Part shown: one piece after another, positions 3,048 to 44,395 of the stretch
Position numbering within the stretch: the stretch's first letter is position 1
Layout of the letters: every line of letters begins with the position of its first letter
Origin: an uncultured Bacilli bacterium
GTDB lineage: Bacteria > Bacillota_I > Bacilli_A > RF39 > UBA660
Assembly (NCBI GenBank): GCA_944358545.1
Contig: CALVRJ010000002.1
Location: 3,187 to 67,186, forward strand
Reading direction: 5' to 3'
Length of the DNA stretch: 64,000 nt
The notes under the pieces: generated by a model
Database searches by the model: none
Told to the model about the DNA's origin: nothing
What the model saw: the letters and a program-made list of their open reading frames with translations, nothing else
Program-made: the position numbers and the translations under genes

Positions 3048-3497
3048 TTATTTATGATAACTTTCGTTATTATTTATTTTAAAACACCTATATATTTGTT
3101 CGAGTAAAATAACTCTAAAAAGTTGATGAGGAAAAGTAAGCTTCGAAAAAGATAAACTATAATTACTTCTTTTTATAACCTCATCAGAAAGACCATAAGA
3201 ACCACCAATTACAAACGTAATTACTGAATGAGAATTAAAAGTTTTATCGATAAATTTAGCCATAGAAACTGAATCCAGCATTTTTCCATTGATTTCTAAA
3301 GTTACGACAAACTCGTTATCTTTTATCTTTTTTAATATTTCCATTCCTTCTTTTTTCAAAGATAAATTACTATCAGAAGTATCCGGAACCTCTTCGATTA
3401 TAACTTTCGTATATTTAGAAAGTCTTTTTAAATATTCATCTATTGCTTCTCTAAAGAAATGCTCTTTAACCTTCCCTACACAAACTATCTTTATCAT
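3048..3497 (-). CDS. rlmH: 23S rRNA (pseudouridine1915-N3)-methyltransferase RlmH (SPOUT)
   Basis: ~150 aa, N-terminal MKI.VV.VGK.K...F..A..EY.KRL and SPOUT knot region. yycJ-rlmH synteny as in Bacillus. Confidence 0.75.
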   Translation of the reverse strand: MIKIVCVGKVKEHFFREAIDEYLKRLSKYTKVIIEEVPDTSDSNLSLKKEGMEILKKIKDNEFVVTLEINGKMLDSVSMAKFIDKTFNSHSVITFVIGGSYGLSDEVIKRSNYSLSFSKLTFPHQLFRVILLEQIYRCFKINNNESYHK

Positions 3498-4252
3498 ACC
3501 TCATATACCTCTGTTTTTTCATGTTGATAAGAAATTATAACTTCTGGAAGTTTTAAATGTTCCTTATCAAAAGTTTCTTTTAAACATGCAAGTGCTTTTT
3601 CCGGTGTATTATTCGACTCACTTAAATGAATCAAAACAATTCTTTTAGTCCTTGGACCAACAACCCGAGACAAATAATAAGATGTATCCTTATTTGAAAG
3701 ATGCCCAACATCACTGAGAATTCTTTGCTGAAGTCTATATGGATAAGGACCCTCTCTAAGCATCTTTACATCATGATTACTTTCAATTATATACAAATTT
3801 CGATTTCTAATCTTATCAAAAACTCTTTCGTTTAAATAGCCCGTATCCGTAATATACACTGCTGTCCTTCCTTTATGAACAAATACATAACCATTACTAT
3901 CAGCCACATCATGAGAAGTTTTAAATGTAATTACACCTAAATCCTTGACCTCCAATTCCTCCCCAATAAATTCATAATTTGGAAGATCAAATTTAAGTTC
4001 TCTAAGCATAGGTGGAGTTAAAAACACCTTTGCCCGGTGTTTTTTTGTAAAAGTCTTAAGCCCAGCTGTATGATCCGAATGCGTATGCGTTATAAATATA
4101 AAATCAATATCATCTGCATTAACACCTATCTCACTTAAAAGCTTTTCTTCCTGCGCACAACTAAGTCCAATATCAACTAAAAATTTAACCTCATCAGTTT
4201 CAAAATAACTTGAATTACCTTTACTACCTGTAGCTAACTGACAAACTTTCAT
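3494..4252 (-). CDS. MBL-fold metallo-hydrolase, YycJ/WalJ-like
   Basis: HTHSDH metal-binding motif, ~250 aa, located directly upstream of rlmH as yycJ is in Firmicutes. Confidence 0.7.
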   Translation of the reverse strand: MKVCQLATGSKGNSSYFETDEVKFLVDIGLSCAQEEKLLSEIGVNADDIDFIFITHTHSDHTAGLKTFTKKHRAKVFLTPPMLRELKFDLPNYEFIGEELEVKDLGVITFKTSHDVADSNGYVFVHKGRTAVYITDTGYLNERVFDKIRNRNLYIIESNHDVKMLREGPYPYRLQQRILSDVGHLSNKDTSYYLSRVVGPRTKRIVLIHLSESNNTPEKALACLKETFDKEHLKLPEVIISYQHEKTEVYEV

Positions 4253-13779: not shown

Positions 13780-15720
13780 CATTTCAAATAAAACATCCCT
13801 AAGTTCCATCGCTCTTTCAAAGTCTAAATTCTTCGCAGCTTCCTTCATTTCTCTTTCAATATTATTCATAAGTTCTTGCTTATCTTTCTTACTCATCTTT
13901 TCCTTCTTCGCTTCAGGAGCTTTTTGTTTATTAGTAACCACATCTCTAATCTCTTTAACAATAGTTTTTGGTACAATTCCATGTTCCTTATTATAAACTT
14001 CCTGAATTCTTCTTCTTCTCTCTGTCTCACTAATAGCTGCCTTCATTGAATCACTCATTATATCCGCATACATAATAACTCTACCATTCGCATTTCTGGC
14101 TGCCCTTCCTATTGTCTGAATTAAACTTCTCTCACTACGTAAAAATCCTTGTTTATCCGCATCTAATATTGCAATTAAACTAACTTCCGGAATATCGATT
14201 CCTTCTCTAAGCAGGTTAATTCCGACAACCACATCATATTTACCAAGTCTTAAATCACGAATAATTTCTAATCTCTCTAAAGTTTTAATCTCATTGTGCA
14301 AATAAGCAACTTTAATATCTAATTTTTTCAAGTAAGCCGTAAGCTCTTCGGCCATTCTGATTGTCAAAGTCGTAATCAAAGTACGTTCATTCTTTTCAAT
14401 CTGTTTATTAATCTGACTTACTAAATCATCAATTTGATTTTCCGTCGGCTTAACCTCAATTTTTGGATCAAGTAAACCTGTCGGCCTAATAATTTGTTCA
14501 ACAACTTTATGATGACATTTTTCAAGCTCATAATCTCCAGGCGTCGCTGAAACATATATCGCATAATCAATCTTTTTCTCAAACTCATCAAACTTAAGTG
14601 GTCTATTATCTAATGCACTAGGAAGTCTAAAACCATAATCTACTAGAGATTGCTTTCGCATCCGGTCTCCATTATACATAGCTCTAACCTGTGGTAAAGT
14701 AACATGAGATTCATCAACAACTAATAAAAAATCATCGCCAAAAAAATCAATTAATGTCGTTGGTGTCTCACCAGGACCTCTCAAAGCTAAATGTCTTGAA
14801 TAATTTTCCACACCTCTACAAAAACCAGTTTCTGAAAGCATCTCTATATCGTAATTAGTTCTTTCCTTAAGTCTCTGATATTCAAGCAATTTATTTTCAC
14901 TTTGAAACTTTTCAAGCTGTTCTTCTAACTCTTTTTTTATTCTTTCAATTGCTATCTTTAACTTACCCTCACTAGTTACAAAGTGACTAGCCGGAAATAA
15001 AGTATAAGTCTTTTTATCATCAGTAATCGTTCCAGTAACCAAATCAAATTCACAAATTCTATCGATTTCGTCTCCAAAAAATTCAATTCTAACCCCCTTA
15101 GAATGCTGACCAATTGGAATAATTTCTAAAACATCCCCTCTTACTCTAAAAGTTCCTCTCTTCAAATCTATATTATTTCGCTCATAAAGCATATCGATTA
15201 ACTTTTCAATTATCTTATCTCTATCGACATTTTCCCCAACACTAAAAAATAGCGTTTTATCTTTATAATCTTCAATTTCCCCAATACCATAAATACAAGA
15301 AACTGAAGCTACAACAATAACATCTTTTCTCGAAATTAAAGCTGCAGTTGCCGCGTGTCTAAGTTCATCTATTTCATCATTAATCGATGCATCCTTTTCA
15401 ATATAAGTATCAGTCTTAGCTACATAAGCTTCCGGCTGATAATAATCATAATATGAAACAAAGTACTCGACGGCGTTTTCCGGAAATAATTCCTTTAATT
15501 CCGCATATAACTGTCCAGCTAAAGTTTTATTATGAGCTAAAACTAAAGTAGGCTTCTGAACTCTTTCGATTACATTGGCAATTGTAAAAGTTTTACCAGT
15601 ACCCGTCGCCCCAAGTAATACTTGATTTTTCTTACCTTCTTCAATTCCTTCTACTAATTTATCTATTGCCTGTGGCTGATCACCACTAGGTTTAAACTTT
15701 GAATGAATCTTAAATTTCAT
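13768..15720 (-). CDS. uvrB: Excinuclease ABC subunit B (intact)
   Basis: 650 aa; Walker A GATGTGKT, helicase motifs, C-terminal UVR domain ([13 protein letters not shown]). Confidence 0.95.
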
Positions 15721-18471: not shown

Positions 18472-18684
18472 CTATTCTAAATCATTTAACCAATTATCAA
18501 AAGATTTCTTAGGAATTTTGTAAAGCTTACCTATCTTTAACACTTTAAAAGGTTTTTGTGTTTTAAAGATTGCATGTATCCAACTATACGCCGTACTTCT
18601 ACCTAATCCCAACATCTTTTGAATGTCTACAACGTCATAGAACAATAAATTACTATTCATGTGGTCACACCATAAAAATAACAA
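18472..18684 (-). CDS. Excisionase/AlpA-like HTH_17 DNA-binding protein
   Basis: 70 aa, DVVDIQKMLGLGRSTAYSWI helix-turn-helix, immediately upstream of the integrases. Confidence 0.5.
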   Translation of the reverse strand: MLFLWCDHMNSNLLFYDVVDIQKMLGLGRSTAYSWIHAIFKTQKPFKVLKIGKLYKIPKKSFDNWLNDLE

Positions 18685-18713
18685 TTATTCATAAAATAAA
18701 CAAAGGTGCAAAT

Positions 18714-18926
18714 TCATTGTTTTGCACCTTTGACATTCTTAAAATGCTGTATTGAATATTTAAAATAAGGTTTATCGTCAAATATTTTATTCATATTAAC
18801 GTCATAATCAGAACATTTATTAATAAAAGATATAACTTTATTTAATGTTTTTACTTCGTTTTTTTCTCTAACTATCATTTTAATTTGTTGTACCTTTTCC
18901 ACAACAACTAAATATTCTTTCATCAC
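18714..18926 (-). CDS. Hypothetical 70-aa protein translationally coupled (ATGA overlap) to mazF; candidate downstream antitoxin
   Basis: 4-nt overlap with the mazF stop; no recognizable domain. Confidence 0.35.
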   Translation of the reverse strand: MMKEYLVVVEKVQQIKMIVREKNEVKTLNKVISFINKCSDYDVNMNKIFDDKPYFKYSIQHFKNVKGAKQ

Positions 18927-19258
18927 ATACCTCCTAAACTCAAAGAAATAACAATAGCTCTATTTATTTCTTTAATTTTTTTATCTGATAACTTACATAC
19001 AAAGAGTTTTAATCTACTTTTATCAATAGCACGTATTTGTTCTAATAAAACATTAGAAGAATATTTAATAAAATTATTCGGCTTTAAATAAACATGTGTT
19101 GGCAAATTAAGAATTTTAGAAGTAATTGGAGCTACAATAGTTGTCGGACTATATCTGTTTCCGACGTTATTTTGAATTATAACAACTGGTCTTGTTCCAC
19201 CTTGTTCACTTCCCTTGACAGGATCTAAATTAGCATAATATATTTCACCTTTTTTCAT
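18923..19258 (-). CDS. mazF: MazF/PemK-family endoribonuclease toxin
   Basis: GEIYYANLDPVKGSEQGGTRPVVIIQNNVGNRYSPTTIVAPITS is the classic PemK/MazF core. Start placed at ATG 19258 (RBS AAGGGGA 7 nt upstream) rather than the track's 19309. Confidence 0.75.
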   Translation of the reverse strand: MKKGEIYYANLDPVKGSEQGGTRPVVIIQNNVGNRYSPTTIVAPITSKILNLPTHVYLKPNNFIKYSSNVLLEQIRAIDKSRLKLFVCKLSDKKIKEINRAIVISLSLGGM

Positions 19259-19728
19259 TAACATTCCCCTTTCAAAAACATCACAAATAAAATATGTAAA
19301 AAAAAACAATAAGAATAATAAAATCCTATTGTTTGTAAATAATCATAATTAAAATTTTCCTCCTCGCCCTAATTAGGGATTTATCAAACGACTAATTGCT
19401 AATTAGTTCCATAGGAATTTCACCTCAACTGTGGTTCTCACAGAGCCGTTCCGATTGATTGAGTCTATCGCTAAACGGAAGTATCATTATACTTTTAATT
19501 TGTCATCGCAAAATTAAGAGCAACTTAATTTTTATAACCAAATATTTATCGCTAACTATTTAATATAGATTACTGCGTATTTGTTAACGTGCTATAATTA
19601 AAAGAACGTATTTGATAAATGCTATTTGATTATCAAAGAACAAACTTATTTCTAAAAAAGAAACAAGTAAAAGGAACTTATCCTTCCAATTGTTTCCTAA
19701 ATAAAGAGTGATTTAACAGACACAAATT

Positions 19729-20202
19729 TTATTTTTTTAATATTTTTTTCAAGTTTTCTAACGCTCGTTTTAAAACAATATGAACAGATTGTTGTGTAGC
19801 ATTCTCTTCTTCAGCTATTTCTCTCTCGGTTTTCTCTTGAAAATAATATTTTTTAATCCTTCTTTTTTGTACATTGGGCAATTTATCTATTGCTTTTTTT
19901 AGCTCTTCAAAAGCACATTTATTAATAACCTCATCTTCTAAACTTATGGACTTATTAATAGCACGACTATTTAAATTATTTTCAAATATTTCAGAATGTT
20001 CAATATGGTTATCATATTCATTCATTTCTGATAAATCTTCTAACTCAAATTTATCTAAAGCATTAAAAATCTCTTCACTTATTTCTACCTTTTGAATAAT
20101 TCCACGACTATCTTTAAAAGACACTATATAAACCTTACAAACATTATCTATTTCAAGTCTATACGGATTATCCTTATACCTTCTTCTTTTAGGTCTTTGC
20201 AA
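19729..20202 (-). CDS. Sigma-70 family region-4 protein (Tn916 Orf7-like conjugative-element regulator)
   Basis: C-terminal region 4 HTH (EREIAEEENATQQSVHIVLKRALENLKK); divergent N-terminus. Confidence 0.55.
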   Translation of the reverse strand: MQRPKRRRYKDNPYRLEIDNVCKVYIVSFKDSRGIIQKVEISEEIFNALDKFELEDLSEMNEYDNHIEHSEIFENNLNSRAINKSISLEDEVINKCAFEELKKAIDKLPNVQKRRIKKYYFQEKTEREIAEEENATQQSVHIVLKRALENLKKILKK

Positions 20203-20607
20203 CTTTTATACCTCCTATCAACTAACTTTTTTCGTAAATTGATAGGAGGAGATCTAATTTTTAGATATAAAAAAAAACGCAAGAACAGAACAAAATCTGA
20301 ACTTGCATCATGAAAAAAACAGTAATAGTCCCTTTTTATTCCAAAGAGACTATACTGCATAAATAAATTCTCCCCGAAATATTGGGGTATATTATATATT
20401 TTAAATTACAAACATATTATACTTTTGCACTAAATATATAATTGTTTGATTAAACGTTAACAAAGTATAACCAACAATGACACTTTTTTAAATTAGAACA
20501 ATAAACTTATAATTATAAACATTTTTTGTAAACAAATAACCAATTATATGATATAATCTAAAATTACATCAACAATCAAAACAAACTTAAATCATTATTA
20601 TAAAAAA

Positions 20608-20685
20608 CTAATAAAAATAAAAATAAAAATAAATTATAAATTATAAATTATTAATAATTAATAATTAATAATTAATAATTAAGAA
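20608..20685. repeat. Cluster of A/T microsatellites: (ATAAAA)3, (TTATAAA)2-3, (TTAATAA)4-5
   Basis: Read directly in the 580-bp intergenic region between the sigma gene and the bacteriocin operon. Confidence 0.6.
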
Positions 20686-20732
20686 CACCCAAAAATAAAC
20701 ACTTTAAATTAATTTAACAATACAATCTTTTA

Positions 20733-20772
20733 ATCATTTCATATAAAAAATACCAGGAAACAAAATTCATGG
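20733..20772 (-). terminator. Bidirectional rho-independent terminator ending the bacteriocin operon after the signal peptidase gene
   Basis: ATACCA/TGGTAT stem (20740-20745 / 20760-20765), 14-nt loop, T7 on plus and T-run on minus. Confidence 0.5.
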
Positions 20773-20782
20773 TATTTTTTTA

Positions 20783-21220
20783 TTAAATTTTTAAAATCAT
20801 TTTCCCTTTAACTTGATTTAAAGAAATTGTACCAAAGTTTCTTCCATCATAAGAATAAGGACGATTATCTCCTAAAACAAGTATTTTGTTGTTTTCAACA
20901 GTAACACTAAAATCATCTGTAAAATTTCTTTCAAACGGTTCCTTAATTTTTTTATTGTCAATAAACAACTTATTTTTATTAAATTCAACTTTATCTCCAG
21001 GTAATCCTATAATTCGTTTAACATACAATTTGTTATCCACTTTAACTATAACTATATCAAAATAATTAAGTTTAATATTATTCTTTTTATATAAAACAAT
21101 ATCATTATTATGCAAATTAGGTTTCATAGAATTACCATCAACTTTAAAAAGGCCAAAGGAAAAACAAAAATATAAAACAATTGCTAAAAATATTAAATAT
21201 ATTATTAATGAAATTTTTTT
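20783..21220 (-). CDS. Signal peptidase I (S26); true N-terminus extends upstream of the track ATG with no canonical start
   Basis: Track ORF 20783-21127 has box D/E (VKRIIGLPGD, VLGDNRPYSYDGRNFG). The codon immediately upstream of the track ATG is Ser, giving the catalytic S-M. The frame stays open to ~21244, encoding a basic/hydrophobic signal anchor (IKNKKISLIIYLIFLAIVLYFCFSFGLFKVDGNSM), with only ATA/ATT as possible starts. Confidence 0.65.
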   Translation of the reverse strand, partial: KKISLIIYLIFLAIVLYFCFSFGLFKVDGNSMKPNLHNNDIVLYKKNNIKLNYFDIVIVKVDNKLYVKRIIGLPGDKVEFNKNKLFIDNKKIKEPFERNFTDDFSVTVENNKILVLGDNRPYSYDGRNFGTISLNQVKGKMILKI

Positions 21221-21225
21221 ATTTT

Positions 21226-21855
21226 TTATAAATGCAATATGGCATCACATTCTTGAGCTAATTGTTCATTATGAGTTACCATAATTATAGTTTTTCCTTG
21301 TTTATTTAACTGTTTTAAAATACTCATAACTTTTCTTGCATTAGAATTGTCTAAATTTCCAGTTGGTTCATCAGCTAAAATAATATCTCCTTTTTTTAAC
21401 ATAATACGAGCCAAAGCTACTCTTTGCTGCTCACCTCCAGATAAAGTATAAACCTTCTTATTATTATAAGATGCCAAACCTACTTTGTCTAAAGCTTCTG
21501 ATACTTTTTCTTTTTTTTCTTTCAACGGAATTTTTTCATATTCCAAAGCCAAAAGCAAATTATACTCAACACTTTCATCATCTATTAAAGCATAATTTTG
21601 AAATAAATAGTTTATATTGTTACGGATATATTCATTTACTTGTTTTTCTTTTAACATAGCAACATCTTTTCCGTTAAACAATACTTCTCCAGTATAATCA
21701 AAATCTAATAAACCAATTATATTTAATAAAGTACTTTTACCACAACCACTTTTTCCAACAATAGCCACAAATTCACCATTATTTATTTTATAAGATAAAT
21801 CTGTGAATATAATCTTTTCACCAAAAGATTTACTTACTTTCTTTAATTCAATCAT
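21226..21855 (-). CDS. ABC transporter ATP-binding protein (bacteriocin export/immunity)
   Basis: Walker A GKSGCGKST, signature LSGGEQQR, Walker B IILADEPTG. Confidence 0.85.
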   Translation of the reverse strand: MIELKKVSKSFGEKIIFTDLSYKINNGEFVAIVGKSGCGKSTLLNIIGLLDFDYTGEVLFNGKDVAMLKEKQVNEYIRNNINYLFQNYALIDDESVEYNLLLALEYEKIPLKEKKEKVSEALDKVGLASYNNKKVYTLSGGEQQRVALARIMLKKGDIILADEPTGNLDNSNARKVMSILKQLNKQGKTIIMVTHNEQLAQECDAILHL

Positions 21856-24019
21856 TTGCTCCTCCTTTTAAATCAATATAAACTTTATTAAACTTATATT
21901 TCTGAATTACAAATATAGATATTAAACAATCAATTATCAAAAACAACGATACAGATATAATAAACAAAATAATATTAAGTAAATTTAAAATTAAAAGAAT
22001 AAAGAAAGATATAACTAAGGCAATAACAGTATACAAAATATTTCTCTTCATTATTGGTTCAAAAATTTTAAATTTATCAAATCCTAACAAATATTTCACT
22101 ACAACAGACTGTTGTTCACTTTTAACATATAATGAAAATACTTCAATAGAAATTATAAAGTAAACCAAAACAATCAAAGCAACTCCTAAACACACTACTA
22201 ACATTATTAACCTTGCACGTTGAATTTCGTCATTAAAATAATCTTTAAATGACATAAAATTACTTTGGCCAATCAAATTACTCAAACCAGCTTTTTTTAC
22301 ATCATCTAATACATAATCTAAAGTATTACTATTAACTTTTATTTTTAACCCCGTTGTTAATGAATTGCCAAATACGCTAATTCCTCTAGAACTTTCAATA
22401 TAGGATAATTTTATTGAATCATCAACAACACGTAATCTAGGATTTTTAACATATTTAACACTTAAATCTAGTCTATACGAATTAAAAGATTGATCATCAT
22501 ATAAATACGCTTTAAATTCAAGAGGTATATTATATTTTTCATAATCTTTTTTAGAATCTTCTAAATAATACTTTTTAAATTTTGGAACGATATTTTTTTC
22601 GCTTTTAGCAAACAAGAAAAATACTCCATCAATATTATCAATATCTACCAATTGACCATTTAAATTATATATTTTTATATTCTCTTTTTTTAAATAATTT
22701 CTATCAACAGAAGCATAATCAAAATATTTACCTTCACTTTCCCATTTTTTTATTCTTCTTTCTTCATCAGGTTTTACTTTTACATAATTACTAAATTGAG
22801 AATAAAATGTGGATAGCCTTTTATCATTATATATAATGTTATATAAATTAGCTTGTTTATCATAATCATATATTTCAGGTGAATCAGCATTAAAATCTTT
22901 TATAATTCCATAATCCAATAACTCTTTAGAATTATTATAAACTTTTAACGATGAATTTAAAGATGAAATAGAATTTCCTAATAAAGAAATGCCAACAATC
23001 ATCATTATAGTCATTAAAAGCTTTAATTTAGCACTTGTTTTGCCAATCTTTATTGCAACATTTTGTTTTTTTATAATATTAGAAGTGCGATAACTTTTTA
23101 AAATAAGATTAACACAAAGCATATTCAAAAAATAAGTAATTAACAATAACAAACATGTAATAATCAGCAAGAATAAGAACTGTAAAAGATTCATATTACT
23201 TGCTAAAATCAATGCTAAAATTAAAATAATAATTGAAAAAATAATATATATTTTTAGTTTATTTTTTATCATAATATTAGAAATTTTTATTTTGTCAAAA
23301 CCTAACAACTTCATACAACCAATTTTTTTAGAATTATAATAAGTATCATAAATTTCAAAAACAAAATAAAATATCATTATAAATATAATACTAAATACCA
23401 ACAATATAAATGTTTCGGTTTGCAAATCTGTAATTGATAAGCTGGTAGATATATCTTTATCAACAATTTTTTTTATTTGATTACTAAAATTAACAAAATC
23501 ATCGTAATTCTTGTAATAAACCAAATATTCACCATAATAATTTCCTTTTTCATTTATTAATGTCGAAAAAGTATAAAAATTATATTTGTCATTTTCCAAA
23601 AAATCTTTTATTAAAAAAACTTGTTTACTATCTTGATGATTATATGTAGAAATAAAAGAATCATCTGTTATTTTTTTATTTAATGACACAACTTTAAATT
23701 TTTTACTAATAATTTTTTTTATTTTGTTAATATTATCTAAAGAAACATAAACATTTTTTATAGAACCATCTTTACCAGAAATGTTTGATTTAGCTAAAAC
23801 AACTTTATTATCTTGTGCTAATTTTGCCACTTCTTTCATAGATTTATCATTAATAACGATATCATCGCTATAATTAATTCTAATGGAATCTCTACTATAT
23901 CCAAAAAAGTTCAAATATTGACTCGATTGAGAAAAATTTAGAAAAAGAATAGAAATAATTATTGCTACCAATATACATAAAATAGGTATTATTCTAGTTA
24001 CATATTTCAAAAAAACCAC
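21848..24019 (-). CDS. Bacteriocin-associated large integral membrane protein (Lcn972 ORF2-like, FtsX-like permease)
   Basis: 723 aa, N-terminal TM, large extracellular domain, two clusters of 3-4 TM helices; sits between the bacteriocin and ABC ATPase as in the lactococcin 972 operon. Confidence 0.6.
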   Translation of the reverse strand: MVFLKYVTRIIPILCILVAIIISILFLNFSQSSQYLNFFGYSRDSIRINYSDDIVINDKSMKEVAKLAQDNKVVLAKSNISGKDGSIKNVYVSLDNINKIKKIISKKFKVVSLNKKITDDSFISTYNHQDSKQVFLIKDFLENDKYNFYTFSTLINEKGNYYGEYLVYYKNYDDFVNFSNQIKKIVDKDISTSLSITDLQTETFILLVFSIIFIMIFYFVFEIYDTYYNSKKIGCMKLLGFDKIKISNIMIKNKLKIYIIFSIIILILALILASNMNLLQFLFLLIITCLLLLITYFLNMLCVNLILKSYRTSNIIKKQNVAIKIGKTSAKLKLLMTIMMIVGISLLGNSISSLNSSLKVYNNSKELLDYGIIKDFNADSPEIYDYDKQANLYNIIYNDKRLSTFYSQFSNYVKVKPDEERRIKKWESEGKYFDYASVDRNYLKKENIKIYNLNGQLVDIDNIDGVFFLFAKSEKNIVPKFKKYYLEDSKKDYEKYNIPLEFKAYLYDDQSFNSYRLDLSVKYVKNPRLRVVDDSIKLSYIESSRGISVFGNSLTTGLKIKVNSNTLDYVLDDVKKAGLSNLIGQSNFMSFKDYFNDEIQRARLIMLVVCLGVALIVLVYFIISIEVFSLYVKSEQQSVVVKYLLGFDKFKIFEPIMKRNILYTVIALVISFFILLILNLLNIILFIISVSLFLIIDCLISIFVIQKYKFNKVYIDLKGGAND

Positions 24020-24067
24020 CTCTTACAACAAAAAGTGGAGAATAAGAAATTCTCCACGACATTATTC

Positions 24068-24406
24068 TTACTCTCTCCAGTAGCCTCTGACTTCAGCATA
24101 ATCATCAAACAAACTTCCATAATCTCTATGCGTTATAGAACGAGTTGATTTCTTTGCCCAGTCAGAATAAGTACCCCCAGCTCCAGATCTAGCATAAACT
24201 TGTTTCTGGTAATTGTAGGCAGCTGGAGCACCGTTAGACATTGTGCCTTCAATCCAATTTCCTTGTAAAGATGTACCAGCAGCAGTATCCATATGGAAAA
24301 CGTTATTAGGTCCCAAGTTATAGCCAGCTAATGCTGTTGCTAAACCAGAAACTGTTACGACAACTGCAAATGCAAGAGTAGTCACATACTTTTTCATTGT
24401 ACTCAC
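24068..24406 (-). CDS. Lactococcin-972-family bacteriocin precursor (Sec signal peptide plus ~80-aa mature domain)
   Basis: N-terminal signal peptide (MKKYVTTLAFAVVVTVSGLATALA|G); mature part Gly/Ala/Tyr/Trp-rich with G-rich segment plus WAK motif. Canonical operon context. Locally elevated GC. Confidence 0.55.
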   Translation of the reverse strand: MSTMKKYVTTLAFAVVVTVSGLATALAGYNLGPNNVFHMDTAAGTSLQGNWIEGTMSNGAPAAYNYQKQVYARSGAGGTYSDWAKKSTRSITHRDYGSLFDDYAEVRGYWRE

Positions 24407-24854: not shown

Positions 24855-25295
24855 ATGACATATTTTTCTAAAAAAATTCGTGATACAAGAATAGACAATG
24901 ATTCAACACAAGAACAGATGGCAAACATCTTAGGAATAGCAAGAAGCAGATATAAAAATTATGAAATTGAAAGAAATATGATGCCATTATTTATAATTGT
25001 TAAGTTTGCAAATCATTTTAATTTAAGCTTAGATTTTTTATTTAATCTATCAAATAAAAAATATTGTAATTCTAATATAAATTATAATAATGACCTTTCA
25101 GCTAAATTAATTAAGCAAATAAGACAAGAGAAAAATCTTTCACAAGAAAAATTTGGAAAAATACTTGGATTACCACAACGCACATATTCAAGTTATGAAA
25201 ACAACGAAAGAACATTAACCATAGAAATACTACTCAAAATAGCAAAAATCACGCATTATTCCCTTGATTACCTCACAGGGCGAGTAAACAATTAA
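24855..25295 (+). CDS. XRE-family regulator with two tandem HTH_3 domains
   Basis: Two Cro/CI-type HTH segments (TQEQMANILGIARSRYKNYE and SQEKFGKILGLPQRTYSSYE). Confidence 0.7.
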   Translation: MTYFSKKIRDTRIDNDSTQEQMANILGIARSRYKNYEIERNMMPLFIIVKFANHFNLSLDFLFNLSNKKYCNSNINYNNDLSAKLIKQIRQEKNLSQEKFGKILGLPQRTYSSYENNERTLTIEILLKIAKITHYSLDYLTGRVNN

Positions 25296-35608: not shown

Positions 35609-37078
35609 TTATTCATAAAAGAAAAAGTTTATTTCATCAGTACCAATAATGGAATCTATATTTTCTATTTCAGTTTCATTTATCAATACAGATTCATCAA
35701 TCTTAAAAGGAAGCCAAGAAGAATTCCATAATTCTTCTTTACAACCATAAACTTTTTTAGCTAATAAAGTAGAGTATTCTTTATCTCTGTTAAACTTTAA
35801 AGTTATACGCTGCAAACACATATTTATGTCATCTGTATTAGGTATTTCTTTAAATTTATTTCTAATACTTTCTATATAATAATCTATCTTATCAGTACAA
35901 AAGCTAAGTAACTTACTTAATATCCCTGAACAAGCCATATATGATTTAGGATTTCTAATTAATATATCGGTAGTTATACTGATTAATTGTTCCAAACATT
36001 CTGGTTCTTCTTCTAAATCTTTCAATTTTTTTTCATAGAAATTTACAAGCATTTTTTTTACAAAACTACTGTTTGGATTTTTCAAAGAAAACTGTCTTAT
36101 TTTTAATAACCAGTTTAAAATACTTTTATCTTCAACTATCAAAAACAAACTATTCAATTTATCTTGTTTAATAGAATTAGATATAACATCATCACAAACA
36201 AAAGTCTTTTTAGTATTAAATTTCATGTTTAATTCTGATAAAACTTCTGATAAAATTTTCAAAATCTTTTCTAAATCAGATTTACTATTTGAAAAAATTC
36301 TATAATCATCTCTAAATCGTATTATCTTATAATCATATATATCTTTTAATCTTTCAGATAATAACATATCTGCATATCCTAAAACTATTTCGGCAATAAA
36401 ATCCATTAATACACTTCCCTGAGGAATACCATTTGTTTGTCCATATGACATACATTGTATTCTCTCATCAATGATATTACCTATTATAGGGTCAAAGCGA
36501 TGGTCTTTCGCATATAATTTATCATGTATTGCCCACGAAATAGAATGAGTATATATAGAACTATAGCAATTTTCAATATCCGCATGAGCCATATATTTAT
36601 AATTCAAAGATAATTGTATACTTCGATTTTCAATGTTCTCTAACCAATTATCTATTATATTTGCAGTAGAACTTTTATCATTATCCGAATCAAAAGGAAT
36701 ACTATAACATTCAATATTACATAAATTTCTAAATTGTTTTAATCGTTCTGTTATAATTTTCCAATTATCAGGTTTTGTTATTTCATAAACTAAATCTATA
36801 TATAAAATTGGATGTATTATTTGCAGTTGTCGCCAAGTATATTTACCATCCTTGTTCGACATATAATTGTAATTAACATTCTCACATTTTTTAACTTGTT
36901 TTATTAAGTCTTTATCAAGTTTACATGAAAGATCATAAAAATATTTACATTCTGACATTTTTAATAAAGCACCAAAATCAAAATATTTTGGCAAATCAAT
37001 CGAACAATAATTAGAACCTTCTAGGAAAAAAAGCTTTGCTTGATTAGCCTCCATATCTATAACGCTTAATCTTTCCAT
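35609..37078 (-). CDS. Reverse transcriptase-like protein (Abi/unknown-group, putative defence RT) embedded in the mob operon
   Basis: RT palm motifs: A (MAHADIENCYSSI), B (GIPQGSVLMDFIAEIVL), C-like (IIRFRDDYRIF). No maturase/X or endonuclease domain and no canonical YADD. Confidence 0.6.
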   Translation of the reverse strand: MERLSVIDMEANQAKLFFLEGSNYCSIDLPKYFDFGALLKMSECKYFYDLSCKLDKDLIKQVKKCENVNYNYMSNKDGKYTWRQLQIIHPILYIDLVYEITKPDNWKIITERLKQFRNLCNIECYSIPFDSDNDKSSTANIIDNWLENIENRSIQLSLNYKYMAHADIENCYSSIYTHSISWAIHDKLYAKDHRFDPIIGNIIDERIQCMSYGQTNGIPQGSVLMDFIAEIVLGYADMLLSERLKDIYDYKIIRFRDDYRIFSNSKSDLEKILKILSEVLSELNMKFNTKKTFVCDDVISNSIKQDKLNSLFLIVEDKSILNWLLKIRQFSLKNPNSSFVKKMLVNFYEKKLKDLEEEPECLEQLISITTDILIRNPKSYMACSGILSKLLSFCTDKIDYYIESIRNKFKEIPNTDDINMCLQRITLKFNRDKEYSTLLAKKVYGCKEELWNSSWLPFKIDESVLINETEIENIDSIIGTDEINFFFYE

Positions 37079-43868: not shown

Positions 43869-43886
43869 TTTTATCCCTCCTTTCCA

Positions 43887-43919
43887 TAAAAAAAAGCCAT
43901 CTTAAAAAATAAAATGGCT
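43887..43919 (-). terminator. Hairpin AGCCAT(N13)ATGGCT plus T8 immediately upstream of parA
   Basis: Read directly; would block read-through from the uvrB-fragment promoter. Confidence 0.4.
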
Positions 43920-44116: not shown

Positions 44117-44395
44117 TTAAACATAGTATGAAACGAAATATTCGACCGCATTTTCAGGAAATAATTCCTTAAGCTCTGCGTATAACTGTCCAGCAAGCGT
44201 CTTATTATGAGCTAAAACTAAAGTTGGTTTTTGAACCCTTTCAATCACATTGGCAATCGTAAAAGTCTTTCCAGTACCTGTTGCTCCAAGTAATACTTGA
44301 CTTTTCTTACCTTCTTCAATCCCTTCCACTAATTTATCTATCGCCTGTGGCTGATCACCACTAGGTTTAAACTTTGAATGAATCTTAAATTTCAT
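44117..44395 (-). pseudogene. uvrB': Duplicated, diverged uvrB 5' fragment (codons 1-91, then stop)
   Basis: 92-aa ORF identical in protein to UvrB residues 1-91 except N32S. At nt level, the first ~58 nt are identical to 15663-15720, then ~85-90% identity with mostly synonymous changes. Walker A retained; RBS AAAGGTGA. Confidence 0.8.

Follow-up and report, generated by a model that had tools for sequence, protein, structure and literature searches.

A leader RNA, probably of the canT class of processive antiterminators, in front of a mazF gene without an upstream antitoxin gene

The window analysed here, a 64-kb stretch of DNA from an uncultured Bacilli bacterium, carries a mazF (pemK) toxin gene at the end of an integrative conjugative element (ICE), and the locus raises the question of what the long leader does in front of a toxin gene that has no antitoxin gene before it. 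An earlier note, made from the letters of the window, had pointed out this missing partner, and it was right in this respect: we found no gene for a MazE, AbrB or ribbon-helix-helix (RHH) antitoxin upstream of mazF or nearby, and the coding strand of the leader holds no open reading frame (ORF) longer than 20 aa. The leader measures about 470 nt because the gene upstream of it, encoding a sigma-70 region 4 protein, ends at 19729. As set out below, we consider it likely that this leader is a processive antiterminator RNA of the class of canT, the conjugation-associated antiterminator of Tn916, and that mazF and the small ORF behind it lie inside the antiterminated unit of a Tn916-like ICE. The features in question are the following.

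20202-19729, minus strand: gene for an Orf7-like small sigma-70 region 4 protein of 157 aa, directly upstream of the RNA
19728-19259, minus strand: leader, the 470-nt spacer between the Orf7-like sigma gene and mazF
19409-19490, minus strand: match to the Rfam pemK RNA, RF02913 (Infernal)
18923-19258, minus strand: mazF/pemK, full length, 111 aa (Pfam PF02452, E = 1e-32)
18714-18926, minus strand: ORF of 69/70 aa, translationally coupled to mazF, with its ATG at 18923

Based on a scan with Infernal against Rfam 15, a check that the earlier note had suggested, we found that the leader matches the pemK RNA over the full length of the model (positions 1-61 of 61), with 55.7 bits against a gathering score of 34.8 and E = 2e-8. 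In the whole window pemK RNA was the sole Rfam family at gathering thresholds, and at E ≤ 10 the only matches overlapping the leader were pemK, a weaker, sub-threshold match to dinG RNA (RF03082) at the same site, and PutA-thermometer (E = 8). The leader has the layout of pemK RNA, with a conserved 5' AUAAUGAUACUUCC and three hairpins, the last of which is GGUGAAAUUCC followed by AUG. This match and the covarying helices described below bear out the view that the leader is a functional non-coding element. The leader had also been called GC-richer than its surroundings, which holds to a modest degree (about 0.31 in 19300-19600 versus 0.23-0.27 in the flanks). Folding of the single sequence was uninformative (z = -1.3). 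Both the pemK and the dinG motif stem from the comparative screen of Weinberg et al. 2017 (Nucleic Acids Research; PMC5737381). Rfam types the first as Cis-reg and the second as sRNA (small RNA) and gives no mechanism, and none was found for either motif in the literature searched.

The Rfam models span 61-87 nt, and several conserved parts of the RNA (helices P0, P4 and P5, the motif GCGAUGA and the upstream blocks) fall outside them. We searched public contigs with the pattern GCGATGA-N10-16-(A)TAATGATACTTCC, which matched 28 IMG/VR loci and at least 120 genome contigs, with hosts including Lachnospiraceae, Oscillospiraceae, Ruminococcus, Butyrivibrio and Enterococcus canis. After duplicate removal, 151 instances of the RNA were obtained from the IMG/VR and genome matches listed; the motif thus occurs in more than 100 other Firmicute elements, whose loci are given L numbers where they have to be told apart. 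The 14-nt box alone was dropped as an IMG/VR query, as it gave mostly chance matches with 3 new real sites among the first 120, and two-part patterns were used instead. When the loci were read side by side, they shared one order of parts: (A)GCGAUAAAUAU, P0, GCGAUGA, the box (U/G)AUAAUGAUACUUCC, P1, P2, P3 of the form GGUGARAnnCC with (A/G)UG, P4, YGYYUGAU and sometimes P5. In the window these parts are placed as follows.

19379-19537, minus strand: extended conserved core (P0, GCGAUGA, box, P1-P4), 143.6 bits to our covariance model R1, of which the window is a seed member
19600-19641, minus strand: promoter-like block TGTTCTTTGAtAA-N17-ATCaAATACGTT (-35-like TTGATA, 17 nt, AAATAC), from alignments; conserved with the 5' half of Tn916 canT
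19538-19553, minus strand: 5' conserved block AGCGAUAAAUAUUUGG, which is (A)GCGAUAAAUAU in many loci
19510-19532, minus strand: helix P0, AAAAUUAAG-UUGCU-CUUAAUUUU
19503-19509, minus strand: single-stranded conserved GCGAUGA, 12-14 nt upstream of the box
19477-19491, minus strand: box UAUAAUGAUACUUCC, the most conserved part, with AUA at 19490-19488 as counterpart of the triplet changed in the canT(S3) allele of Tn916
19446-19478, minus strand: helix P1 (CCGUUU...GGAACGG), with an insert of variable length
19426-19445, minus strand: helix P2, CUCUGUG-AGAAC-CACAGuuG
19410-19425, minus strand: helix P3 (AGG-UGAAAUU-CCU), then a conserved (A/G)UG
19383-19407, minus strand: helix P4 (ACUAAUU-AGC-AAUUAGU; arms 19407-19391), then a conserved CGUUUGAU
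19346-19378, minus strand: P5 module with (U)CCC, 5' arm UAAUUA, loop GGGCGAGGAGGAAAAUUU and 3' arm UAAUUA, outside R1

On a plain (unfitted) MAFFT alignment of 23 sequences, RNAalifold recovered P1-P4 with compensatory changes in 20 of the 24 pairs. The covariance model R1 covers P0-P4 without P5, with 158 positions and 31 pairs, and its search gave 93 matches in 100 sources. In the alignment of these 93 loci, which is fitted to the model, 93.2% of the cells were standard pairs, compared to 59% after shuffling and 35-49% when the partners were slid by 1-3 columns, and all 31 pairs, including six of six in P0, had changed on both sides. On the sense strand G-U/U-G cells outnumbered A-C/C-A cells by 172 to 40 in the same fitted alignment, which indicates that the folded strand is the one sense to the genes on either side.

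P0 was present as a hairpin at a fixed position in the loci compared, with unrelated stem sequences and in many cases a 5-nt loop of the NNGCN type. The hairpin that had been taken for a plus-strand terminator (19532-19510) exists, but it is this helix of the minus-strand RNA and not a terminator of the plus strand. Similarly, the repeated CTAATT(A/G) motifs are real as local copies, which are arms of P4 and P5, but they are not enriched across the window (30 CTAATTR versus 48.6 expected). The palindrome CCCTAATTAGGG (19378-19367) is present as described and forms the base of P5. The P5 hairpin was found in about 30 of 105 representative loci, again with unrelated stem sequences and with the loop consensus GGGGnGUYGAGGAYAAAUA. 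The (U)CCN/NGG(G) pairing and the P5 arms overlap mutually and both pairings covary across loci, which implies an H-type pseudoknot or a two-state switch beside the loop GAGGAYAAAUA. This loop resembles the 5' block GCGAUAAAUAU. Taken together, the RNA of the window is modelled as about 200-470 nt long and folded into P0-P5 around the box UAUAAUGAUACUUCC.

The pemK and dinG RNAs look like sub-classes of one family. The dinG-type member L128 (8442-8522; 65.6 bits to dinG RNA) has the same GCGAUGA, box, P0 and sigma-upstream context, and other dinG-type loci are alike (L129, L135, L176, L200 and L255). The dinG-type members are followed by an ORF of 669-680 aa, and two of the 73 downstream ORFs scanned were DinG-like helicases, presumably from the dinG group. 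At least four further structural sub-classes of the RNA family are visible by eye.

Antitermination has been measured for a homologue of this RNA, in Tn916. Wirachman and Grossman 2024 (PLoS Genet; PMC11658703) described the Tn916 orf8-xis spacer, with canT, as a cis-acting, orientation-specific, processive antiterminator, most likely in the form of RNA. Once the element is circular, transcripts from Porf7 depend on it to get past the insulator terminator T1 and into the conjugation genes, and it acts on several heterologous terminators downstream with no other element gene needed. The alleles canT(S3) and canT(Δ162) each abolish processive antitermination, and a structure or consensus for canT was not defined by its authors (PMC11658703). 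In the Tn916 copy of pCF10 (locus L275), which we used as Tn916 sequence, the pemK RNA model matched 2823-2923 on the canT strand, within the orf8-xis spacer (55.0 bits, E = 9e-9), and R1, of which Tn916 is a seed member, matched 2774-2952. According to the methods of the canT paper (PMC11658703), S3 replaces AUA with UGC at nucleotide 283 past the orf8 stop; this is L275 2823-2825, positions 1-3 of the box, and the triplet is kept in the window at 19490-19488. The placement agrees independently with the design of the allele, as S3 was meant to alter a tyrosine of the spurious 'orf5' and both Tyr codons of orf5, its only two, lie in the box. Δ162 (nucleotides 229-390) corresponds to L275 2769-2930 and thus almost exactly to the P0-P3 core. 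From these positions it follows that both loss-of-function alleles map onto the motif common to the window and Tn916. An old Tn5 insertion at codon 41 of Tn916 orf5 falls in the equivalent of helix P2. The place of the RNA is likewise that of canT, with an Orf7-like sigma gene before it and recombinase genes behind, and it is kept across the family: the nearest ORF upstream on the same strand encoded a Sigma70_r4 protein in 59 of 86 representative loci, and the first large ORF downstream was a recombinase in 53 of 73, with a large serine recombinase in 29 and a tyrosine integrase in 24, and 12 of these tyrosine integrases had the Tn916 integrase DNA-binding domain.

The 5' halves of the two RNAs are also related, with the block TGTTCTTTGAnAA-N17-ATCrAATACGTT common to Tn916 and the window (19641-19600). 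In the window this block contains the palindrome TTGATAA-N11-TTATCAA (19636-19612), which the earlier note had correctly listed, and it looks like a weak promoter. No published link between canT and the Rfam pemK and dinG motifs was found in the canT paper (PMC11658703) or in other literature searched.

This homology bears on the idea that the leader is dedicated to the toxin, be it as a type III-like RNA antitoxin, through leader peptides or by an antisense small RNA. PemK is clearly enriched behind the RNA, with a homologue within about 1 kb downstream in about 28 of the 151 loci (about 20%), usually with no ORF between, and the two mini-ORFs reported for the leader are present, each after a Shine-Dalgarno-like sequence: GAGGUGA-N8-AUG with MELISN* (19412-19392) and GAGGAGG-N11-AUG with MIIYKQ* (19346-19326). 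These sequences are real, but the first supposed Shine-Dalgarno site is P3 with its (A/G)UG (19425-19410) and the second, GAGGAGG, is the conserved P5 loop, after which no start codon stands in other loci. The first AUG is GUG in Tn916, L276, L285 and L287, the peptides are unrelated and run from 2 to at least 16 codons (L276, L081, L110 and L107 among the loci read), the second mini-ORF is absent elsewhere, and the nucleotides of the mini-ORFs covary as helices; control by leader peptides could therefore not be upheld. About 80% of the family, including Tn916, is without PemK, and control by RNA specific to the toxin is likewise not supported, given the homology with canT of an element that has no MazF. 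A type III repeat-RNA antitoxin was rejected because there is no tandem repeat in 19259-19728, and an antisense small RNA is not supported, given the excess of G-U over A-C pairs on the sense strand. We regard a leader specific to MazF, in any of these forms, as hardly credible.

The preferred reading, a canT-class antiterminator, was then set against the layout of the element. The ICE is 28.7 kb long, is bounded by a 53-bp exact direct repeat and is inserted in the first codons (5' end) of uvrB. The order at its end, on the minus strand, is sigma gene, RNA, mazF, 70-aa ORF, xis and two integrases, and its ORFs of at least 90 aa are all on the minus strand with the sole exception of an Xre-type regulator gene (24855-25295). 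With this order and orientation, the transfer genes would be reached only by transcription that crosses the joined ends of the circular form. Terminators in the window were predicted as hairpins followed by a U-tract.

15668-15720 and 44343-44395, no strand: 53-bp exact direct repeat bounding the ICE (element about 15721-44395)
19298-19333, minus strand: terminator-like hairpin AACAAUA-N15-UAUUGUU with U9, between the RNA and mazF; AU-rich, below the threshold of the terminator scan
18691-18732, minus strand: predicted intrinsic terminator with a 12-bp stem and U-tract, at the end of the 70-aa ORF and upstream of xis
43885-43919, minus strand: predicted intrinsic terminator just within the ICE at its far end, following the displaced promoter and duplicated 5' end of uvrB
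18472-18660, minus strand: excisionase-like HTH_17 gene (xis)
18462-17257 and 17270-15969, minus strand: two tandem tyrosine integrase genes

At the place of the hairpin that follows the RNA in the window, the related loci L276, L285 and L287 have stronger terminators. The terminator at 43919-43885 is the positional analogue of the Tn916 insulator T1, and in 24.0-44.0 kb there are 12 terminator-like sites versus 4.1 ± 2.0 expected. As far as predicted sites can tell, the layout of the ICE matches the termination and antitermination arrangement described for Tn916. We therefore propose, by homology with Tn916 canT, that the RNA would be transcribed from upstream, from the promoter of the Orf7-like sigma gene and/or the promoter-like block 19641-19600, and that the folded RNA would act in cis on the polymerase that made it and render it resistant to intrinsic terminators. 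Only antiterminated transcripts would pass the leader terminator (19333-19298) and the terminator at 18732-18691, and after excision and circularisation such transcripts would also pass the insulator at 43919-43885 and the internal terminators of the conjugation operon. In this scheme mazF and the 70-aa ORF would be accessory genes between the RNA and xis-int, and the RNA would not be their dedicated regulator.

Several points weigh against this proposal. The function is carried over from Tn916 by homology of the core only, and in Tn916 a 400-bp fragment is active even with S3, while a 291-bp fragment with the mutated region is inactive (PMC11658703). P5 is absent from Tn916, so that the two RNAs are not identical machines. 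The R1 alignment is fitted to the model, which inflates the pairing percentages given above, although the unfitted RNAalifold result agrees in direction. The leader terminator of the window is AU-rich and weak, and a weak hairpin after the sigma gene means that read-through from the sigma-gene promoter is not assured. Finally, a terminator directly after a structured RNA is also the ordinary layout of an attenuator or riboswitch.

The last point leads to a local cis-regulator, that is, a ligand- or protein-sensing riboswitch or attenuator that would control the adjacent leader terminator only, and thereby pemK and the downstream genes. In the window, L276, L285 and L287 the covarying RNA is followed by a terminator-like hairpin within about 15-60 nt, Rfam types the motif as Cis-reg, and the alternative P5 pairing (CCC/GGG versus UAAUUA/UAAUUA) could be a switch. 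However, the Tn916 homologue is processive on several heterologous terminators without any other element gene (PMC11658703), and Tn916 has no terminator immediately after the RNA core. The genes downstream are also heterogeneous, and a metabolite signal is less likely for this reason. We consider a purely local regulator unlikely.

The sigma-like gene upstream of the RNA in 59 of 86 loci, together with TATAAT or GATAAT within the box, could suggest that the box and GCGATGA are a DNA signal, either a promoter for the Orf7-like sigma factor or a single-strand origin or single-stranded DNA promoter used in rolling-circle replication or transfer of the ICE. The transferred strand of such ICEs probably has mRNA polarity, judging from ICE replication biology. 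If it does, covariation cannot tell RNA from single-stranded DNA, an ambiguity noted in general by Weinberg et al. (PMC5737381). Against a DNA signal, the covarying P0 lies upstream of the supposed -10, which places the box inside a folded molecule, and the GCGATGA-box distance of 12-14 nt is the wrong spacing for a -35 of the sigma-70 type; on these two grounds the box was rejected as a sigma-70 promoter. In a chromosomal reporter the Tn916 region is active behind a heterologous promoter and its effect is orientation-specific, and loss of T1 suppresses the canT defect, from which its authors excluded 'a strong promoter' (PMC11658703). A single-strand origin (sso) had also been considered from TAGCGA (CS-6-like) in the P1 loop of the window and was dropped, as TAGCGA is not conserved in other loci. 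A DNA signal at the box appears very improbable to us.

With the leader probably assigned to the canT class, the question of the toxin itself remains. Among proteins of solved structure it comes nearest to S. aureus MazF, with E 1e-31, and B. subtilis EndoA (phmmer E 1e-31 to 1e-28 for the two). Translation likely starts at ATG 19258, after AAAGGGG; the mazF gene reported earlier is thus real, but its start at TTG 19309 is less likely. The earlier note had also reckoned with an inactive toxin, of which there is no sign: MazF is full length with the segments GSEQGG-R-P, SPT-IVA-IT and LLEQIR conserved and, as judged from these, it looks intact, so that restraint of some kind would be required.

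One candidate for this restraint is the 70-aa ORF, which would make mazF and the ORF a toxin-first type II toxin-antitoxin pair with a new kind of antitoxin, compatible with a canT-like RNA in front. The overlap with the mazF stop is as reported (GTGATGA, ATG at 18923), and GGAGG stands 6-7 nt upstream, which supports translational coupling. The ORF has few relatives: HMMER, run in full against 1.8 billion representatives, gave about 20 members of its family, a profile search gave 42, and a word-index search found near-identical proteins only. The closest relatives of the window element all adjoin uvrB and all carry two integrases, and in such uvrB-inserted elements (L279-284 and L287) the pair of PemK and small ORF recurs with overlaps of 4-11 nt and 34-46% identity. 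The context was read for seven members: PemK lies directly upstream in four of them and is absent from three (L276, L285 and L288); the small ORF is thus seen alone and PemK never alone in this element family, an asymmetry expected of an antitoxin. RNA and toxin also part company among these relatives, as L276 and L285 have the RNA (58 bits) and small ORF without PemK, and L279 and L282 have PemK and small ORF without the RNA. In L287 there are small ORFs on both sides of PemK (3476-3664 and 4001-4210), of which the upstream one, of 62 aa, shows a weak similarity (hhalign probability 81%, E = 1e-5) to the downstream family, in the N-terminal half of the latter. The upstream ORF of L298 was rejected as a member of the small-ORF family, its resemblance being not significant.

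Other results speak against an antitoxin. MazE-type antitoxins are acidic. The small-ORF family is uniformly basic (pI, the isoelectric point, 9.2-10.2), like MazF itself (pI 9.95). No match to Pfam, NCBIfam or PADLOC was found for the 70-aa ORF, and its confident AlphaFold model (predicted local distance difference test score, pLDDT, 87; strand-helix-helix-strand) had no structural neighbour with E < 0.1 in Foldseek searches of PDB and BFVD, so that no antitoxin or DNA-binding fold was recognised. With PemK absent from three of the seven members, an accessory role in the ICE or in excision would suit the family just as well. In other canT-type loci (L188, L214 and others) PemK is followed by unrelated small ORFs (SHOCT_2, DUF6870, DUF3789 or Cys-rich mini-proteins) or directly by xis. 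The reversed-order pair suggested by the earlier note therefore stands as a recurring pair with overlapping frames at 30-46% identity, and its antitoxin part is weakened by the PemK-free members, the basic charge and the lack of a known antitoxin fold. We hold this antitoxin to be a tentative possibility, somewhat on the doubtful side.

A different answer would be that PemK/MazF has been captured repeatedly behind canT-type RNAs without a protein antitoxin. PemK stands directly behind such RNAs in about 20% of the loci, several of them without any partner ORF, and no canonical MazE/AbrB antitoxin was found beside PemK in the about 28 canT-type loci. Cys-rich small proteins (C-x-C-V-W...C-x-F..C) precede PemK in L110, L126, L142, L173, L214, L239 and L234. 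The toxin would then be silenced by the terminators and the need for a canT-modified polymerase, or be neutralised by the RNA, and be fired on ICE activation. We think this improbable; if true, a toxin fired on ICE activation would arrest donor growth or process the long transfer transcript, and in such a toxin module an antitermination circuit would take the place of the antitoxin.

The remainder of the element shows some further features. Around the 53-bp repeat there is an imperfect repeat of about 220 bp. What the native promoter of uvrB now faces is a 92-aa uvrB' fragment (44395-44117) and the far end of the ICE, and the intact uvrB (15720-13768) lies downstream of the integrase genes, from which it follows that expression of uvrB may depend on transcription leaving the ICE. 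The tandem integrases, of 401 and 433 aa, overlap by 14 nt; paired integrases are kept in all related uvrB-inserted elements (L276-L288), some with an ORF of 62-68 aa between them. Genes named by Pfam and PADLOC include ParA/ParB, an adhesin, a Toprim protein, an AbiP2-type reverse transcriptase, a MobA/VirD2 relaxase, a coupling protein, a VirB4-like ATPase, a CHAP hydrolase and an ABC transporter. The reverse transcriptase (489 aa, 35609-37078, minus strand) lies just upstream of the relaxase gene and matches the PADLOC AbiP2 defence-RT model with E = 1e-170, which indicates an anti-phage reverse transcriptase among the genes of the ICE; Rfam gave no group II intron RNA. The cargo at 20783-24406 (minus strand) encodes an S26 signal peptidase, an ABC ATPase (209 aa), a 723-aa multi-pass membrane protein and a 112-aa ORF, and looks like a bacteriocin or peptide export/immunity cassette.

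Between the signal-peptidase gene and the sigma gene region there is a stretch of about 10% G+C (20500-20800), inside which lies the best sigma-70-like promoter match of the minus strand (20572-20543, TTGATG-18-TATAAT). An inverted repeat, CCTCCTATCAA-N17-TTGATAGGAGG, at about 20211-20250 (minus strand), would mask the Shine-Dalgarno sequence of the sigma-like gene (TTG start 20202), and a terminator-like hairpin is found further upstream (20353-20325). Together these may provide translational or attenuation control of the sigma gene.

Compared to known toxin systems, the toxin of the window is a full-length homologue of the MazF/EndoA proteins of mazEF and ndoAI-ndoA in S. aureus and B. subtilis. 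Unlike mazEF, the window has no MazE, AbrB or RHH gene, its downstream candidate partner is basic and without a recognised fold, and its mazF is embedded in the excision and transfer transcription unit of an ICE. The type III systems ToxIN and CptIN have the same order of non-coding RNA, terminator and endoribonuclease gene. In contrast to these, the window has no tandem repeat array, its toxin is of the MazF/PemK type and not ToxN, and its RNA family occurs mostly without a toxin. With the Rfam members of dinG and pemK type the window shares the three-hairpin core, and with the pemK type also the position in front of a pemK gene. An odd leader before a toxin gene is in this way explained by ordinary ICE biology, to which the question of how MazF is restrained is added.

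In comparison to Tn916 canT, both elements have a sigma-like gene (orf7, or orf7 and orf8), the RNA and xis-int in the same orientation at the end of a nearly all-co-oriented ICE, spacers of close length (470 nt in the window, 460 nt in Tn916 with a canT region of 452 nt) and a terminator just inside the other end. Unlike Tn916, the window has the extra P5 module, whose loop is GAGGA-rich, and directly behind the RNA a terminator-like hairpin, mazF and the 70-aa ORF between RNA and xis, two integrases, a relaxase of MobA/VirD2 type and no orf8 homologue; antitermination, measured in Tn916, is proposed for the RNA of the window by homology. What is added here is the link between the pemK/dinG motifs and canT together with a structural model. 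By this link the two Rfam motifs, in the catalogue since 2017 with no mechanism, gain a concrete testable function, and canT, described in 2024 without a structural model, gains a covariation-backed architecture (P0-P5, box, GCGAUGA) together with well over 100 variants that occur naturally in Clostridia and enterococci.

A comparison of canT with put of phage HK022, EAR of the B. subtilis eps operon and conAn2 of plasmid pLS20 has been made before (PMC11658703). The proposed mode is alike in all of these, with a cis-acting nascent RNA that makes the polymerase terminator-resistant over long operons, and they are used in long mobile-element or operon transcripts, as proposed here for the window. 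The RNA of the window differs from them in architecture, with five or six helices and a long single-stranded conserved box. On the present analysis, processive antitermination by an RNA, coupled to excision, may well be built into Tn916-like elements in general and would not be an oddity of Tn916 itself.

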